Source: Aquificaceae bacterium (GTDB lineage Bacteria; Aquificota; Aquificia; Aquificales; Aquificaceae). Taken from it: a stretch of 64,000 nt of DNA. The notes beneath the pieces are model-generated. The model saw only the letters and a list, made by a program, of their open reading frames with translations. It searched no databases and was not told the DNA's origin. Of the stretch, positions 58,459 to 63,664 are shown one piece after another (positions within the stretch are counted from its first letter, which is position 1; each line of letters opens with the position of its first letter). Both the position numbers and the translations under genes were made by a program. The stretch lies in NCBI GenBank assembly GCA_025057455.1, contig JANWWY010000003.1, forward strand, positions 15,821 through 79,820. The letters run 5' to 3'.

Positions 58459-59479
58459 TTCTCCTTATGTTCTCTTTTAGCCTTTGCCTCAGTTCCTCAC
58501 TTTTTAAAAAGTAACCAAGAACCCTTGCAAGCTCCCCTCTGTGGTAGGCTACCATACCTGCTTCGTTTTTAAGAAGATATAGGGCGTTGTAATACTCTTG
58601 CCCTGGTAAAGGTTTGTAAATTAGCATGGGGGTTTCCGAGGCAAGAGCCTCGGAGGTGGTTATACCTCCAGCCTTTGATATGAGCAGAAAAGACCTTCCC
58701 ATAAGCTTAGCCATCTCCTCGTGGCTTAGTATGCCTCTTACAGCCTGAATCTTCTTAAACCTTTGGCTTACTCTCCCGTAAAGTCTATCGTCACTACCGC
58801 ATAGAACCATAGCCTCAAGGTTCTTGGGTAAGAGGTCTTCAACCACTTGACATATTTCTTCCACAGATGGAGTCATCCCAAACATGCCAGCACTTATGAG
58901 AAGAAGGTCTCTTTCTTCCTGTTTGTATCTATCAAACTCTGGGTTTATGGGTATTCCAGTTACCTCAATTCTGTTGCAGGATACGCCTTTCCTGTATAGG
59001 TGAAACTTCACTTCGTGAGAAGGGACAAAGTAAGCATCCATGCGGTCGTGAAGCCACTGAACATGGGCTACAAAGTCAGTTATTACCACAAAGCTTTTGG
59101 GCACTACAAAGCCCTTTTCCTTGAGAATTCTAAGCATGCCAGCATAAGTGGGGTAAACAGCTACAACACCCTCTGGCTTTTCCTCTTCCAAGAGTTCTCT
59201 TAGCTCCTTAAGTCCTGGCAGGGAAAGGAGACGCACCAACAGGCTATCCTTTTCAAGGTCGTAGGTAGAGTTGTAAAAAAGCCCGTAGAGCTTGGGAAAA
59301 TACTTCATCATGTAAACGTAAAACCTTGCGTTAAGGGCGTTGAGCCTTGGGTTTAGAAGGTGGTAGGGGTCTTCCAGCCTGACCTTTGCGGAGAAGTTTT
59401 CCTCAAGGCTCCTCTTTAGAGCTCTTGCCACACTGTTATGCCCGCCACCGAAGGAAGAGGTAAGTATGAGTATTTTCAT
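58391..59479 (-). CDS. MGDG synthase/UgtP-like diacylglycerol glycosyltransferase
   Basis: SFGGGHNSVA, VITDF..H..W, GIPI, ISKAGGITTSEA, PLPGQE..NA. Confidence 0.85.
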   Translation of the reverse strand: MKILILTSSFGGGHNSVARALKRSLEENFSAKVRLEDPYHLLNPRLNALNARFYVYMMKYFPKLYGLFYNSTYDLEKDSLLVRLLSLPGLKELRELLEEEKPEGVVAVYPTYAGMLRILKEKGFVVPKSFVVITDFVAHVQWLHDRMDAYFVPSHEVKFHLYRKGVSCNRIEVTGIPINPEFDRYKQEERDLLLISAGMFGMTPSVEEICQVVEDLLPKNLEAMVLCGSDDRLYGRVSQRFKKIQAVRGILSHEEMAKLMGRSFLLISKAGGITTSEALASETPMLIYKPLPGQEYYNALYLLKNEAGMVAYHRGELARVLGYFLKSEELRQRLKENIRRIKKPHSSLLVAKGIHDVLRTKD

Positions 59480-60207
59480 CTGAGAGCTTTTATTATAAAG
59501 GCAAACATTCCCGCAAGTGCCTGCAAAAATACTATGCTGTATCCTGTTGGTAGGTCAATGTTGAAGGATACAGCTACTGCAACAAGATTTATCAGCGTCC
59601 CATAAACCCACGCAAAGACGATTCCCTTTTGAAAAAGCAAAGAGACTATGGCCGGTCCCAAAAGCAGTGCAAAGACCACCAAGACGCCCACAAGGCTTAC
59701 AGAGCTTGCCAAAGTTAAAGAAAAGAGCACGAAAAAAGAGAGCTCCTTCAAAATACCCTCCAGCCTAGCGCGAAGGTATAGCAAAAGACCTATTACTGCG
59801 TAAAGGAGTGCACTCTTTAGCACGCCAGAAAAGGGAACAAGCAGGACATCACCGGCGGTAAGCTTCCTTATCTCCTCCATGCCGTGTGGGGAGTGTGTAA
59901 GGAGGAGAACCACTCCAGAAACGCCTAAGGCATACAAAAGACCCACAAAGGCTTCCGCATACTCTTTCAGTCTCTGCGAAAAGGCTATAAGAAGGCTGGC
60001 AAAGAGGCTAAAAAGGAGGGTAAGAACAAAGGCACCTTCCCCGTGCATTAGCACCAAAGAAAGGGCGTATCCAAGTGCGGAAAACTGCGCCACCGCAATG
60101 TCAGCAAAGATGATGCCACGCTTTATTATCTCCCTTCCAAAGTGTGCGTGTATGCCCACAAGAACCACAGAAAGCAATAGGCTTGAAAGAAACAAGTCCC
60201 ATATCAC
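59476..60207 (-). CDS. metal ABC transporter permease (ZnuB/MntB-like)
   Basis: R.IIFADIAVAQ..ALG, GLLYAL, VGVLVVFALL; hydrophobic; follows the binding-protein gene. Confidence 0.8.
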   Translation of the reverse strand: MIWDLFLSSLLLSVVLVGIHAHFGREIIKRGIIFADIAVAQFSALGYALSLVLMHGEGAFVLTLLFSLFASLLIAFSQRLKEYAEAFVGLLYALGVSGVVLLLTHSPHGMEEIRKLTAGDVLLVPFSGVLKSALLYAVIGLLLYLRARLEGILKELSFFVLFSLTLASSVSLVGVLVVFALLLGPAIVSLLFQKGIVFAWVYGTLINLVAVAVSFNIDLPTGYSIVFLQALAGMFAFIIKALR

Positions 60208-61085
60208 ACAGACAACCTCCTAAGTATCTCATCAAAAAGCGAGAAAATATCCCTTGCGTTTTCAATGCCAACGTCCTGAGGCAAAACTACCACTTTAATG
60301 CCCAGCTGATTGGCAAAGTTTTGAGAATTCCTATCCCCTTTTCTAAAGGCTTCCAGCACTATGAATTTTACACCCTTATTTTCCGCCTCCTTTTTGAGCC
60401 TTTCTAAATGTTTGGGTGTGGGTGGTATGCCGGGCAAAGGTTCAAGTGTTCCAACTGTTTCTATTCCGTAGCGTCTAAAAAGATAGTCGTAGGTTTTGTG
60501 ATACTGCACAACTTTTAGACCTTTGAGCTGTAAAAATCCAGCATCCCACTCTTTCAGCCTTGCCTTCCACCTTCTTTGGAAGTCCTCAAAGTTTGACCTA
60601 TAGTAGGTGCAGTTTGGAGAATCTAATAGGCACATTCTCTCCACTATGGCACTTGCCAAAGATGGTATGTTATGCGGGTCCAAAAAGTAGTGGGGGTTTC
60701 CCTCTGGATGCACATCTCCCATCTCCCTTGAGACCCTTTCGGGTTTTTCTATGAGCTCCACAAACTGAGAAAGGTCAAGAAAACCCTGTCTCCCTGGCTG
60801 CACTTTTGGATTGTTGGACTGCTGAAGAAGTGGGGGCAGAAAGCCTATTTCGAGGCTTGCACCGTTTATCACCAACAGGTCTGCACTTCTTAGCTTTGCT
60901 ATGTGCGTGGGTCTTGGCACGACAAAGTGAAAGTCCTCCGTGGGCTTTGCTATAACATGGAGGGTTATCCTGTCCCTGCCAACTTCTCTGAATATATCAC
61001 CTATCCACGGATATGTGGTAACAACTCTAAGCTGGGCAAGGGAAAAGCTAAGAGAGAGCAGTAAAAGGGCAAAAACTCTAAGCAT
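60204..61085 (-). CDS. metal ABC transporter substrate-binding protein (ZnuA/cluster A-I)
   Basis: Signal peptide, EDFHF, GASLE.GFL, DVHPEGNPHYFLDP, YHK, EPLPGIPPTPKHL; SD GGAGGTG favours ATG 61085. Confidence 0.9.
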   Translation of the reverse strand: MLRVFALLLLSLSFSLAQLRVVTTYPWIGDIFREVGRDRITLHVIAKPTEDFHFVVPRPTHIAKLRSADLLVINGASLEIGFLPPLLQQSNNPKVQPGRQGFLDLSQFVELIEKPERVSREMGDVHPEGNPHYFLDPHNIPSLASAIVERMCLLDSPNCTYYRSNFEDFQRRWKARLKEWDAGFLQLKGLKVVQYHKTYDYLFRRYGIETVGTLEPLPGIPPTPKHLERLKKEAENKGVKFIVLEAFRKGDRNSQNFANQLGIKVVVLPQDVGIENARDIFSLFDEILRRLSV

Positions 61086-61290
61086 GTCCTTCACCTCCTT
61101 TAGCCTTTTTTTCTCCCCTTTCCCTGCCCCTGAGGAGTTTCTTCGTCCCTATGTACAGAGCAAGCCCCACTATACTGGCAGAGGTTCCCAAGCACGCAGG
61201 ACAGCTCCCGCATCCGCAGGCGGAGAATACTCCAAGAGTCCCTGCGTAGGGAAGTAGGGGAAGAACCTTTACAAAAACAACTTTTCTCAT
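61078..61290 (-). CDS. small Cys-rich membrane protein (70 aa, CGCGSCPAC)
   Basis: ATG at 61290; two hydrophobic segments flanking a Cys cluster, basic tail, stop overlaps the SBP start; exactly fills the operon gap. Confidence 0.65.
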   Translation of the reverse strand: MRKVVFVKVLPLLPYAGTLGVFSACGCGSCPACLGTSASIVGLALYIGTKKLLRGRERGEKKAKGGEGHA

Positions 61291-61327
61291 AGCCCTTAAA
61301 GATGGGCCCCCTGAGGCCCCAATGGAG

Positions 61328-62743
61328 TTAGAAAGGATGCGCACCGTGAGCTCCTATGGCAAAGTTAAACTGGAGAATCACCTCCTTTACGGGTTTTCTC
61401 TTTCCGTTTTCGTAAAAGGCTCTGTTTTCTCCCACCTGAAGCCTTATGCGCGAAAACTCCGTGGGAGAGTATTCTATCATGGCATAGTATGCAGGCAGGT
61501 TGTCGGGCGTTGATACCTTATTTCCTCCTACCTTTACATCGTTTTTATTTATAAGCTCGTACCTTAAGCCTGCCCTCCACTGTTTGTGAAACCTTCCCAC
61601 CAGCTGTGCGTAAAATCCCGATTGCTTCTTATTCACACCCTTTTGCTCAAGCCCGCCATTTTCAAACTCGTATTCTGTTCCGTCTTGGTCTCTGAACATG
61701 TATTCTCCCTGAAGAGCTATGTATCTTACGCTGTCTATCTGGTAGCGTGCGGTAAGGTCAAGACCATAGAGCTTAGTCTTTGCGTCCAGTCCGTGGTCAT
61801 CGTGAGCGTGCCTGTGTTTACCCTGAGCGTAGGAAAGTCCTGCAAGTAGCGACAGATTGCCAAGGTCAAAGGAAGTCTTCACGTAGCCAAGGTAAAGGTT
61901 AGGAACTGGTTTATCTTCCACCTTGAAGGTGTTGTGGGTGTTGGGGTCTTCAATCTCAAAGCCCTTGTATCCAAAGCTCTGCTCGTTTTCTCCCTGAAGG
62001 ACTTCCGCACCCAACAGAAGATAAAAGGGCGTGGGAGCAAGCCAGTTTATACCAATACCTTTTTCCACAAGTCCATCGTCACCCAAAAAGACCTTGTTGG
62101 GAAGGGGTTGATGGGCAAAGTCCCAAGCATGAGGATGCTGAGCGTTTAACCTTCCAAAGGAGCTTCTAAATTTACCCACCTTTAGCTGAAAACCGCCTGG
62201 GAGACCTCTGGTTACCGCATAGGCTTCTTCCACTTTTGCACCGTCCTCAGAGAAGGGTATGGTAGCGTAAAGGTCAAAGTAAGGGTCAACGGGTGCATAC
62301 AGGTAAAGCTCTCCGTAGTTTAGGTTAAAGCCTCTCCTTTCGTTCAGTAGCCCGTGTCCGTGCTCATCGTCGTGCCTGTGCCAGAGTCTTGGAATTTTCA
62401 GCTCCTTATACTCCTCGTCTTTTCTGTTTCTGCCCACTGCGGAAAAGTCTAATATGAAGGATATGTCAGGAAGGAATGCGGTCTGTTTAAAAGGTGAGAC
62501 CTGATAGGCTTTTAGCCTGTCTTCAAACTTGCTTCTGAGCTGTAGGCTTCTGTCCGCTGGTGAAGGTCTTGTGGTTTCCTTTACTTCTGGCTTTGCTTGC
62601 TGAGACTTTTCAAGAGTTTCAATCTTTTTCTCAAGCTCTCTTATAAGCCTTCTCTGCTCTTCCAGCTGACGCCTAAGCTCCTGAAGGTTTTCCTGAGCAA
62701 AGGAAAGGCTAAAGATACCAAGTATTAAAAGGGTGTTCCTCAT
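61328..62743 (-). CDS. His-rich outer-membrane beta-barrel metal channel/receptor with N-terminal coiled coil
   Basis: Signal peptide, coiled coil, His clusters (HRHDDEHGHG, HRHAHDDH), QHPHAWDF, C-terminal GAHGAHPF; SD AAGGAGGT 7 nt before ATG 62743. Confidence 0.8.
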   Translation of the reverse strand: MRNTLLILGIFSLSFAQENLQELRRQLEEQRRLIRELEKKIETLEKSQQAKPEVKETTRPSPADRSLQLRSKFEDRLKAYQVSPFKQTAFLPDISFILDFSAVGRNRKDEEYKELKIPRLWHRHDDEHGHGLLNERRGFNLNYGELYLYAPVDPYFDLYATIPFSEDGAKVEEAYAVTRGLPGGFQLKVGKFRSSFGRLNAQHPHAWDFAHQPLPNKVFLGDDGLVEKGIGINWLAPTPFYLLLGAEVLQGENEQSFGYKGFEIEDPNTHNTFKVEDKPVPNLYLGYVKTSFDLGNLSLLAGLSYAQGKHRHAHDDHGLDAKTKLYGLDLTARYQIDSVRYIALQGEYMFRDQDGTEYEFENGGLEQKGVNKKQSGFYAQLVGRFHKQWRAGLRYELINKNDVKVGGNKVSTPDNLPAYYAMIEYSPTEFSRIRLQVGENRAFYENGKRKPVKEVILQFNFAIGAHGAHPF

Positions 62744-62746
62744 GTT

Positions 62747-62815
62747 GGGCACCTCCTTTTTAGTTTTTTTGGATTTAGGTGAGGTTATGCTTACGCTATA
62801 GGTAAGGAGGTGCCC
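62747..62815 (-). promoter_or_regulatory. anti-SD/SD hairpin: leader RAPP codons pair with the SD of the channel gene
   Basis: Perfect 12-bp inverted repeat. On the mRNA, GGGCACCUCCUU (62815-62804) pairs with AAGGAGGUGCCC (62758-62747); 45-nt loop. Confidence 0.8.
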
Positions 62816-63062
62816 TGCTATGAGTGTGTTTTATGGTTTTACCTATGTTAGGTTGCTCAAGTTTTTCTTCCCTTTTGAATTGGTAGAATATAAGGTTTAT
62901 TTTTAGGCTCGGTTTGTAGGAGCTATAGTCCACATGCCCCTGCTGGAGTATACATACGGAGCAATCTATGTGTAGTTGATGGTCTTCGTGATGGTGTTCT
63001 GCAGTGGCAAAATCCGCAAAGAGAAGCAGTAGCGTAGTAAGTAGGGAGAGTAGGCTACTCAT
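62796..63062 (-). CDS. DUF2946/CruR-like leader protein with His cluster, CxxC and C-terminal RAPP
   Basis: Hydrophobic N-terminus, EHHHEDHQLH, DCSVC, ends SRAPPYL; immediately upstream of the OM metal channel. Confidence 0.75.
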   Translation of the reverse strand: MSSLLSLLTTLLLLFADFATAEHHHEDHQLHIDCSVCILQQGHVDYSSYKPSLKINLIFYQFKREEKLEQPNIGKTIKHTHSRAPPYL

Positions 63063-63071
63063 TTGAAAGTG

Positions 63072-63100
63072 ATTTTAACACTCAAAATATCAACTGTCAA
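63072..63100 (-). promoter_or_regulatory. sigma-70 promoter of the metal-uptake operon
   Basis: On the minus strand TTGACA-17 nt-TAAAAT, 9 nt before ATG 63062, no SD. Confidence 0.8.
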
Positions 63101-63133
63101 CCATCCACGCAGAACGTTCTATAATATAAGCTC

Positions 63134-63664
63134 ATGGAGAAGGCAAAATTTGGAGTCCTGACCGTATCCGATAGAGCCAGTAAGGGAGAATACGAAGACA
63201 TAAGCGGAAAATACATAATAGAGTATCTCAACGATGTTGTAACATCACCCTTTGAAATAGTTTACAACGTGGTGCCGGACGAAAGAGACATAATAGAAGG
63301 AGCTCTTTTGCACATGGCTGATACGGAAGGCTGTTGTCTTATACTTACTACAGGAGGTACTGGCCCAGCTCCGAGGGATGTGACCCCAGAGGCTACGGAG
63401 GCAGTCTGTCAGAAGATACTTCCAGGTTTTGGGGAGCTGATGCGTGCGGTTTCCCTAAGGCAAGTTCCAACAGCGATACTATCTCGCCAGACTGCAGGCA
63501 TAAGGAACAAGACCCTCATAATAAACCTGCCTGGCAAACCCCAGTCTATAAAGGTTTGCCTTGATGCGGTTTTTCCCGCAGTTCCCTACTGCATAGACCT
63601 GATAGGAGGACCTTACATTACCACTGACGAAAGTAAGATAAAAGCCTTTAGGCCATCAAAGTAG
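63134..63664 (+). CDS. mog: molybdopterin adenylyltransferase
   Basis: TVSDRAS.G.YED.SG, TTGGTGPAPRDVTPEA, PGFGE.MR, SRQTAG, NLPGKP. Confidence 0.95.
   Translation: MEKAKFGVLTVSDRASKGEYEDISGKYIIEYLNDVVTSPFEIVYNVVPDERDIIEGALLHMADTEGCCLILTTGGTGPAPRDVTPEATEAVCQKILPGFGELMRAVSLRQVPTAILSRQTAGIRNKTLIINLPGKPQSIKVCLDAVFPAVPYCIDLIGGPYITTDESKIKAFRPSK

Follow-up and report, generated by a model that had tools for sequence, protein, structure and literature searches.

The 64,000-nucleotide (nt) stretch analysed here, referred to as the window, comes from an Aquificaceae bacterium of the Hydrogenobacter / 'Pampinifervens' group (assembly GCA_025057455.1, contig JANWWY010000003.1, positions 15,821 to 79,820). 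Its minus strand carries a short leader open reading frame (ORF) followed by the genes of a putative metal import system. The leader ORF (62796..63062 including the stop, minus strand) encodes 88 amino acids (aa) and terminates in ...HTHSRAPPYL*. A gap of 52 nt separates its stop from the ATG of the putative gated gene, which encodes a 471-aa outer-membrane beta-barrel channel-like protein (61328..62743, minus strand). Behind this lie genes for a periplasmic metal-binding protein and an ATP-binding cassette (ABC) permease. A first-pass annotation had proposed that the codons of the leader's RAPP motif are at the same time the anti-Shine-Dalgarno sequence of the channel gene, so that a ribosome stalled on the motif would free the Shine-Dalgarno (SD) sequence for the next initiation event. 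We report an analysis of this helix, of its conservation, and of the switch that it may constitute.

The RAPP motif is specified by the codons AGG GCA CCU CCU (62805..62816, minus strand; residues 83-86), with Arg83 AGG at 62816-62814, Ala84 GCA at 62813-62811, Pro85 CCU at 62810-62808 and Pro86 CCU at 62807-62805. It is followed only by Tyr87 (UAC), Leu88 (CUA) and the stop UAG (62798-62796). Read on the minus strand, GGGCACCTCCTT (62815-62804) and AAGGAGGTGCCC (62758-62747) are perfect reverse complements of each other. The 5' or anti-SD arm of the resulting helix, GGGCACCUCCUU (62804..62815, minus strand), consists of the GG of Arg83, GCA, CCU, CCU and the U of Tyr87. The 3' arm, AAGGAGGUGCCC (62747..62758, minus strand), contains the SD of the channel gene (GGAGG core 62756-62752), with 8 nt between this core and the channel ATG (62743-62741). 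The 45-nt loop that connects the arms (62759..62803, minus strand; 22 A, 12 C, 8 U and 3 G) takes in the end of the leader ORF, with its final two codons and its stop. When 62825-62735 was folded with RNAfold, the 12-bp helix was obtained together with an outer helix, at -27.7 kcal/mol (z = -4.42, equalled by 0 of 200 shuffles). In the outer helix, C62824-U62820 and G62818 pair with C62744-G62739. The 5' side (62818..62824, minus strand; CUCAU at 62824-62820 plus G62818) lies within the codons for Thr80-His81-Ser82, belongs to the minimum free energy fold and is kept at 75 °C, while the 3' side (62739..62744, minus strand) takes in the channel AUG and its neighbours, the AUG pairing with the His81 codon. 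The complementarity of the arms, their coordinates and the A-rich loop containing the leader stop were thus exactly as first annotated, by sequence as well as by RNAfold, and the same bases do encode the motif and pair with the SD. The helix is also predicted to persist in the heat: at 75-85 °C the pairing probability of its bases averages 0.90-0.94, and the in silico cost of masking the 5' arm at 75 °C is 8.6 kcal/mol.

We compared this pairing with the other genes of the same genome, using the 532 long ORFs that bear a strong SD. In the ~100 nt upstream, the channel gene has a perfect complement of 12 bp to its SD region, and none of the others exceeds 9 bp. Taken together with the z-score and the shuffles, this uniqueness effectively excludes a chance pairing. 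The 3' end of the 16S ribosomal RNA (rRNA) was looked for in the 66-contig assembly of the host and was not assembled, the whole rRNA operon probably being missing; in genomes of the same genus this end reads GGAUCACCUCCUU. The 5' arm and the 16S rRNA 3' tail of the genus have CACCUCCUU in common. The 5' arm thus carries the 16S anti-SD CACCUCCUU in cis and adds three G:C pairs that are impossible for the rRNA.

The leader peptide has a signal-peptide-like N-terminus, MSSLLSLLTTLLLLFADFATA, whose hydrophobic stretch LLSLLTTLLLLFADF is followed by A-T-A|E. These features are kept in homologs, and the signal peptide was judged by inspection only. Codons 22-37 (62952..62999, minus strand) encode a putative periplasmic metal-binding cluster, EHHHEDHQLHIDCSVC, within which H23-H25, D27, H31, D33, C34 and C37 (C34-x-x-C37) are invariant in leader alignment A1. 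A leader profile search of 178 Aquificota genomes, from which all loci found were fetched, located the leader in 66 genomes belonging to 14 of 34 genera, one copy in each. The conservation counts rest on 61 distinct Aquificota loci. In the window the second Cys sits 46 residues ahead of Arg83, and the spacing from CxxC to motif is 45-48 residues in every one of the 61 distinct leaders (46 in 40 of them). The motifs RAPP, RGPP and RSPP are arrest-competent on the ribosomes of E. coli as well as B. subtilis, and the Bordetella leader CruR arrests at its RAPP (PMC12992588, PMC10951233). For ApdA/ApdP and CruR, the ribosome has been shown to stall with the two Pro codons of the motif occupying the P and A sites, in that order (PMC10951233, PMC12992588). 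By analogy, the stall predicted here would put Pro85 at the P site and Pro86 at the A site.

Two characterised metal-responsive leaders are of direct relevance. In the case of CruR (Bp2923)-bfrG of Bordetella pertussis, a DUF2946 leader, RAPP is needed for downstream expression and metal relieves the arrest (PMC9426467; arrest PMC12992588). In the case of CutF-cutO of Rhodobacter capsulatus, an exported metal sensor stalls and the stall melts a stem-loop that shields the SD (PMC9973294; bioRxiv 10.1101/2025.02.05.636593). As in other leaders of this kind, the present one is shorter than 150 aa and has a Pro-Pro pair in its last 15 residues (PMC9973294); in addition, it has a CxxC in the mature part and is followed on the same strand by metal-homeostasis genes. 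It probably works like CutF and CruR, and its sequence suggests a remote or unannotated branch of the DUF2946 family. No second leader ending in RxPP was found in this genome, and no Rfam family was found within 62500-63300.

Upstream of the leader lies a sigma-70-type promoter (63072..63100, minus strand) comprising TTGACA (63100-63095), a 17-nt spacer and a TG-extended -10 element TAAAAT (63077-63072), which together match 11 of 12 consensus positions. With the transcription start placed from the position of this promoter, the leader mRNA appears to be leaderless or nearly so, since the -10 element is only 9 nt from the leader ATG (63062) and the leader ORF has no SD. A -10-to-ATG spacing of 9-12 nt recurs in most loci of the same genus; in some Hydrogenothermaceae, by comparison, the leader start overlaps the stop codon of the gene ahead of it (TAAATG).

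Among the Aquificota loci the motif is RAPP in 42, RSPP in 15 and RGPP in 3 cases. The motif Arg is spelled by six different codons, which indicates selection on this residue at the protein level. The first Pro (Pro1) is CCU in 53 of 61 leaders (87%) and never CCC or CCG, and the second (Pro2) is CCU in 47 of 61. For comparison, CCU makes up 26% of Pro codons genome-wide and ~22% of first codons in Pro-Pro pairs, and CCU-CCU accounts for 5.9%. Among Pro-Pro pairs in the SD-bearing long ORFs of the genome, those with CCA first dominate, and those with CCU first, which spell CCUCC, amount to only ~22%. We let each locus fold freely over a span from 15 nt ahead of the motif to 12 nt inside the next gene. 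At 37 °C, 54 of the 61 loci pair at least four of the five SD core bases with the motif codons, and at 70 °C 55 of the 61 do so. Pro1 and the SD are separated by a median of 54 nt (10th-90th percentile 47-63). In ~25 loci a 112-aa SaoD/DsrE-related gene stands between leader and channel, and it is then the SD of that gene that is paired; the channel SD is paired where this gene is lacking, as in the window's genome. The helix therefore tracks the leader and not the cargo.

The complementarity extends beyond the codons for Pro-Pro. A contiguous helix anchored on CCNCC:GGAGG measures 10.4 bp with the cognate partner and 8.3 bp with permuted partners (z = 10.9). For the analysis of covariation we used an ungapped alignment of 57 sequences, in which 23 nt around the Pro-Pro codons were joined to 23 nt around the SD. 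Paired cells make up 72.3%, compared with 65.5 +/- 0.8 in shuffles (0 of 500) and 40-50% in slid registers, and the covariation score is 0.192 as opposed to 0.103. Changes on both sides of a pair number 94, against 51.6 in shuffles (0 of 500), and the covariation of RAPP codons with the downstream SD that the first-pass annotation had suggested looking for is thus seen within Aquificota. Nine distinct, fully complementary 4-nt flanks after the Pro-Pro codons occur in 14 loci, where 3.2 would be expected; the pairs include CCU-GUG/CAC-AGG, CCU-GUA-G/CUAC-AGG, CCU-CUC-U/AGAG-AGG, CCU-UAC/GUA-AGG and CCU-GCA/UGC-AGG. Covariation is also seen at synonymous sites, GCA occurring with UGC and GCU with AGC. 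In loci with CCA at Pro1 (L098, L104, L136 and L145), the Pro-Pro codons are unable to pair with GGAGG. Their SD pairs instead with UCCUCCU or CACCAUCCU right after the stop, or with CACCUCU 16 nt ahead of the motif; by sequence, the anti-SD in these lineages is relocated and still adjoins the stall site. On the strength of the conservation in 54-55 loci, the covariation of flanks and synonymous sites and the CCU bias at Pro1, we favour the view that the SD-sequestering pairing is under selection within Aquificota.

We consider it likely that the locus is a stall-operated translational switch, in which an exported His/Cys metal-sensor leader of the CruR/CutF type gates the channel and an AztC/ZnuA-like import operon. 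On comparative grounds this interpretation is largely supported. In the free mRNA, the arrest codons would pair with the channel SD 45 nt downstream and the outer helix would pair the AUG, and since SD and AUG are both paired the channel ribosome-binding site would be closed (OFF). The binding-protein and permease genes would be closed along with the channel, because the genes overlap and translational coupling between them is probable. During arrest, with Pro85 at the P site, the ribosome would occupy ~62825-62795, that is both 5' arms. Its leading edge would then be ~30 nt away from the place where the next 30S subunit lands, and the SD would be single-stranded during the arrest (ON). The SD lies ~52-54 nt from the presumed P site, a distance that would leave room for an initiating 30S subunit. 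With the P site taken from CruR/ApdP (PMC12992588) and a footprint of ~30 nt assumed, the geometry fits a stall-opened switch, as the arrested ribosome would cover the whole of the 5' arm. Release of the arrest would lead to termination three codons on, and the helix would re-form (OFF).

The duration of the arrest would presumably be set by the nascent chain. With the ribosome at RAPP, the CxxC 46 residues back would be located at the tunnel exit or in the Sec channel, and metal binding would shorten the arrest, leaving the operon OFF when the cell is replete. Relief of the arrest by metal is the likelier direction because the cargo is an importer and because of the analogy with CruR. The AztC/ZnuA-type cargo suggests that the metal is perhaps Zn. 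From the behaviour of the characterised relatives we infer that RAPP arrests the ribosomes of this organism, that export or metal modulates the arrest, and that the response has the direction given above.

A number of observations weigh against this reading. At the level of the peptide, the window's leader has no Pfam match at E <= 10, so the PF11162 (DUF2946) gathering threshold is not reached, and it has no NCBIfam match either. Matches to DUF2946 are sub-threshold in 4 of 8 close leader homologs (best E 4.3e-4). It is for these reasons that the leader is filed as a probable remote CutF/CruR branch. At the level of the RNA, RNAalifold predicts only this helix core from the natural alignment, yet it recovers just five core pairs with nearly no covariation term. 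Five of the pairs in the helix come free, since any CCU-CCN matches any GGAGG. The shuffle controls ignore the relatedness of the loci. A phylogeny-aware test of independent pairs, based on a tree of the leader coding DNA, yields 1-3 supported contrasts per column, at which significance is unreachable; as this test is underpowered, we rely on the shuffles, the slid registers and the distinct complementary haplotypes.

The arrangement is moreover confined in its phylogenetic range. A tblastn search with the channel protein gave 343 confirmed stretches, of which the best 80 loci were kept, with channel relatives in Nitrospirota, Desulfobacterota, Pseudomonadota and other phyla. A leader of the HHH..DCxxC..RAPP type lies upstream of the channel in ~58 of the 70 loci examined, in several phyla. 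An unrestricted RNAduplex search of the arm against all downstream sequence was too noisy in GC-rich loci, and tests anchored on the SD were used instead. For 40 loci from other phyla, the cognate arm:SD duplex is no better than the permuted one (p = 0.27), and an SD paired with the arrest arm occurs in only 14 of these loci, most of which use CCU. The leader family thus works elsewhere without this arrangement. In others of the non-Aquificota loci the SD pairs with sequence just past the stop, as in CutF, or a terminator-like hairpin is present. We therefore rejected the helix as a general property of the leader family: the complementarity, whose absence from homologs the first-pass annotation would have counted as a refutation, is strong within Aquificota and lacking as a general feature from the 40 loci outside them. 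Since cognate pairing outside Aquificota does not exceed permuted pairing, sequence comparison identifies the arrangement as an output module particular to this lineage, whereas the sensor family itself is widespread. Five Thermodesulfovibrionia loci (L013, L014, L016, L017 and L060) contain a conserved GC hairpin, GCGGGAC...GUCCCGC, with a U-rich tract ~30 nt past the leader stop and before the channel SD. This looks like an intrinsic terminator or attenuator, and would be a different output module of the same leader family.

Some of the evidence on this side would allow a different output, namely Rho-dependent attenuation as in Bordetella CruR. The stalled ribosome would then shield from Rho an unstructured stretch behind the leader that is richer in C than in G, its release would permit termination ahead of or inside the channel gene, and the helix would be secondary or would keep the channel mRNA untranslated for Rho. 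An intact rho gene is present in this genome (676 bits, above the curated cut-off), the stretch between the arms averages 41% A and 7% G with C exceeding G in 56 of 60 loci, and CruR, the best-studied relative ahead of an uptake gene, uses Rho (PMC9426467). However, the G-poor stretch is only ~40-45 nt long and its A content is high, which makes it short for a Rho utilisation (rut) site. Rho also leaves unexplained the covariation of flanks in register with the SD, the preference for CCU at Pro1 and the relocated anti-SD of the CCA lineages. We regard Rho as the main output as unlikely, noting that the two routes are compatible and that sequestration of the SD would itself favour polarity. For a coding-strand terminator between leader and channel gene the search was negative: no intrinsic terminator was found in this interval. 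Plain translational coupling, in which RAPP is a constitutive pause that lengthens the opportunity for initiation without any metal sensing, would account for the opening of the helix, given that any ribosome translating the last leader codons would open it. An arrest-defective mutant of a comparable system still transiently disrupted its stem-loop (PMC10987492). What coupling alone leaves unexplained is the invariant His/Cys cluster, the putative signal peptide and the 45-48-residue spacing, as well as the metal-import cargo and the relation to the metal-responsive CruR and CutF (PMC9426467, PMC9973294), and we judge it improbable.

Two further explanations would remove the translational gate. 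The helix could be an element of mRNA stability or processing, such as a cleavage site for RNase III or a hairpin that protects the 5' end of the channel mRNA: at 12 bp, a perfect duplex has sufficient length to serve nucleases as a substrate, and loss of the stem-loop region in cutFOG affected mRNA stability (PMC9973294). A stability element, however, needs neither an SD nor arrest codons, whereas what is conserved here is the pairing of the SD core with the codons of the stall site, the two lying a fixed distance apart, and in the window the AUG is paired too; this explanation therefore appears very improbable. Finally, Pro-Pro codons might have come to lie near a strong SD by coincidence in an SD-rich genome, CCUCC being intrinsic to CCU-CCN and long GGAGGUG SDs being in use in this lineage. 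Against this stand the uniqueness among 532 genes and the covariation of the flanks, the use of CCU at Pro1 in 87% of leaders where ~22% is expected, and the retention of the pairing whatever gene comes next, so that coincidence is scarcely credible.

The proposed stall-operated switch belongs to a general class that is already known (SecM, MifM and VemP), its metal-sensing form included (CutF-cutO). The closest precedent is CutF, a small leader that is Sec-exported and cis-acting, as the present one is predicted to be. Both have a Cys motif ~45 residues ahead of a C-terminal Pro-rich stall motif (45 residues in CutF, 45-48 here). In CutF, as proposed here, an mRNA helix covers the SD of the gene that follows and melts during the stall. 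The two differ in the location of the anti-SD, which in CutF lies in an intergenic stem-loop past the stop that is unwound by the ribosome, whereas here it is formed by the arrest codons themselves. They also differ in cargo, a Cu-induced detoxifying multicopper oxidase as opposed to an outer-membrane channel plus ABC importer, in metal-binding motif (CxxxC in CutF, His-rich plus CxxC here), and in host, the present one belonging to the thermophilic Aquificota. CruR shares with the present leader its export (predicted for the latter), the CxxC, a RAPP a few residues from the C-terminus and a metal-uptake operon that starts with an outer-membrane transporter. In contrast, CruR is 145 aa long and its cargo is a TonB-dependent transporter, against 88 aa and a channel that is not TonB-dependent. 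CruR acts through Rho-dependent termination, which takes place in an intergenic region that is GC-rich, 162 nt long and not described as having an SD helix; here we find a 52-nt gap and a 12-bp SD helix.

Other systems share individual elements. SecM-secA, MifM-yidC2, VemP-secDF2 and uDF_RQH-secDF2 combine the elements proposed for this locus, namely an exported chain, C-terminal arrest and disruption of an SD stem-loop by the stalled ribosome (PMC7897499, PMC10987492). They sense secretion or insertion capacity and not metal, however, their peptides are unrelated, and their arrest codons are not described as the anti-SD. ApdA and ApdP have the RAPP core and an EF-P-resistant stall with Pro in the P and A sites (PMC7897499, PMC10951233), but lie upstream of secDF and have N-terminal parts unrelated to the leader studied here. 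No SD-sequestering hairpin was found by the authors for ApdA, ApdP or ApcA (PMC7897499). The novelty put forward in the first-pass annotation thus holds in part. The arrest codons acting as anti-SD, the occurrence in Aquificota and the channel-plus-ABC-importer cargo are new, none of them being described in the literature searched, but an SD-sequestering, metal-sensing stall leader was already published for CutF-cutO (PMC9973294).

Upstream ORFs with RAPP or RGPP ahead of metal genes are now recognised as widespread and have been catalogued (PMC12992588). The route from arrest to output has been worked out for only two metal leaders of the RAPP/RGPP type, via Rho for CruR and via an intergenic stem-loop for CutF. 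The arrangement proposed here would be a particularly compact solution, as a single 12-nt stretch would serve both as arrest motif and as an anti-SD in cis which, with 12 pairs versus 9, would prevail over the 16S tail. It would extend nascent-chain metal sensing to deep-branching thermophiles. The model is directly testable because synonymous CCU-to-CCA changes separate the function of the peptide from that of the RNA, and the ~60 natural variants provide a ready-made mutational series. A broader proposal, which we put forward tentatively as a possibility somewhat short of even, is that R-x-P-P motifs written with CCU-CCN carry a built-in copy of the 16S anti-SD, and that bacteria with strong SDs may repeatedly have used the stall site as an SD mask. 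In Aquificota this mask would be the conserved means by which a periplasmic His/Cys metal sensor gates an uncharacterised family of His-rich outer-membrane metal channels. If true, this would answer for a whole clade how RAPP arrest reaches the downstream genes, a question raised in PMC12992588.

The channel-like protein itself has a signal peptide, an N-terminal coiled coil and His-rich stretches (WHRHDDEHGHG and HRHAHDDHG). Its matches to the Pfam families BBP2 and OMP_b-brl are sub-threshold, none being above threshold, and a sequence search of the PDB was without a relative. In several phyla, members of this family are flanked by a RAPP leader and by a ZnuA/AztC-type binding protein and permease. 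The locus thus draws attention to a family of outer-membrane channels that lacks annotation, is linked with AztC/ZnuA-type importers across several phyla and may be a metal channel. Downstream, a small Cys-rich membrane ORF (61078..61344, minus strand; CGCGSCPAC) overlaps both of its neighbours and has an uncertain start. It gave no family match, and it is kept in L003 (4599-4823) and L007 (4639-4884) and absent in L004. The ZnuA/AztC-type periplasmic metal-binding protein (60204..61094, minus strand) matches PF01297 with E 1.5e-42, and its best NCBIfam resemblance is to AztC (5.8e-28, below the cut-off). The start of the ABC-3 family metal permease (59476..60207, minus strand; PF00950, with a weak AztB-like match) overlaps the stop of the binding-protein gene. 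No ATPase gene for the ABC importer was found in the locus here, nor in L003, L004, L007 or L038. The SaoD/DsrE-related gene has no copy in the window's genome by tblastn. In the genomes that carry it, this 112-aa Cys protein (NF040732/NF040913) is found in L001 (~2650-2990), L003 (2650-2988), L007 (2650-2988) and ~20 further loci, and the branch to which it belongs adjoins AztC-type metal importers (Haft preprint 10.1101/2022.07.06.499078).

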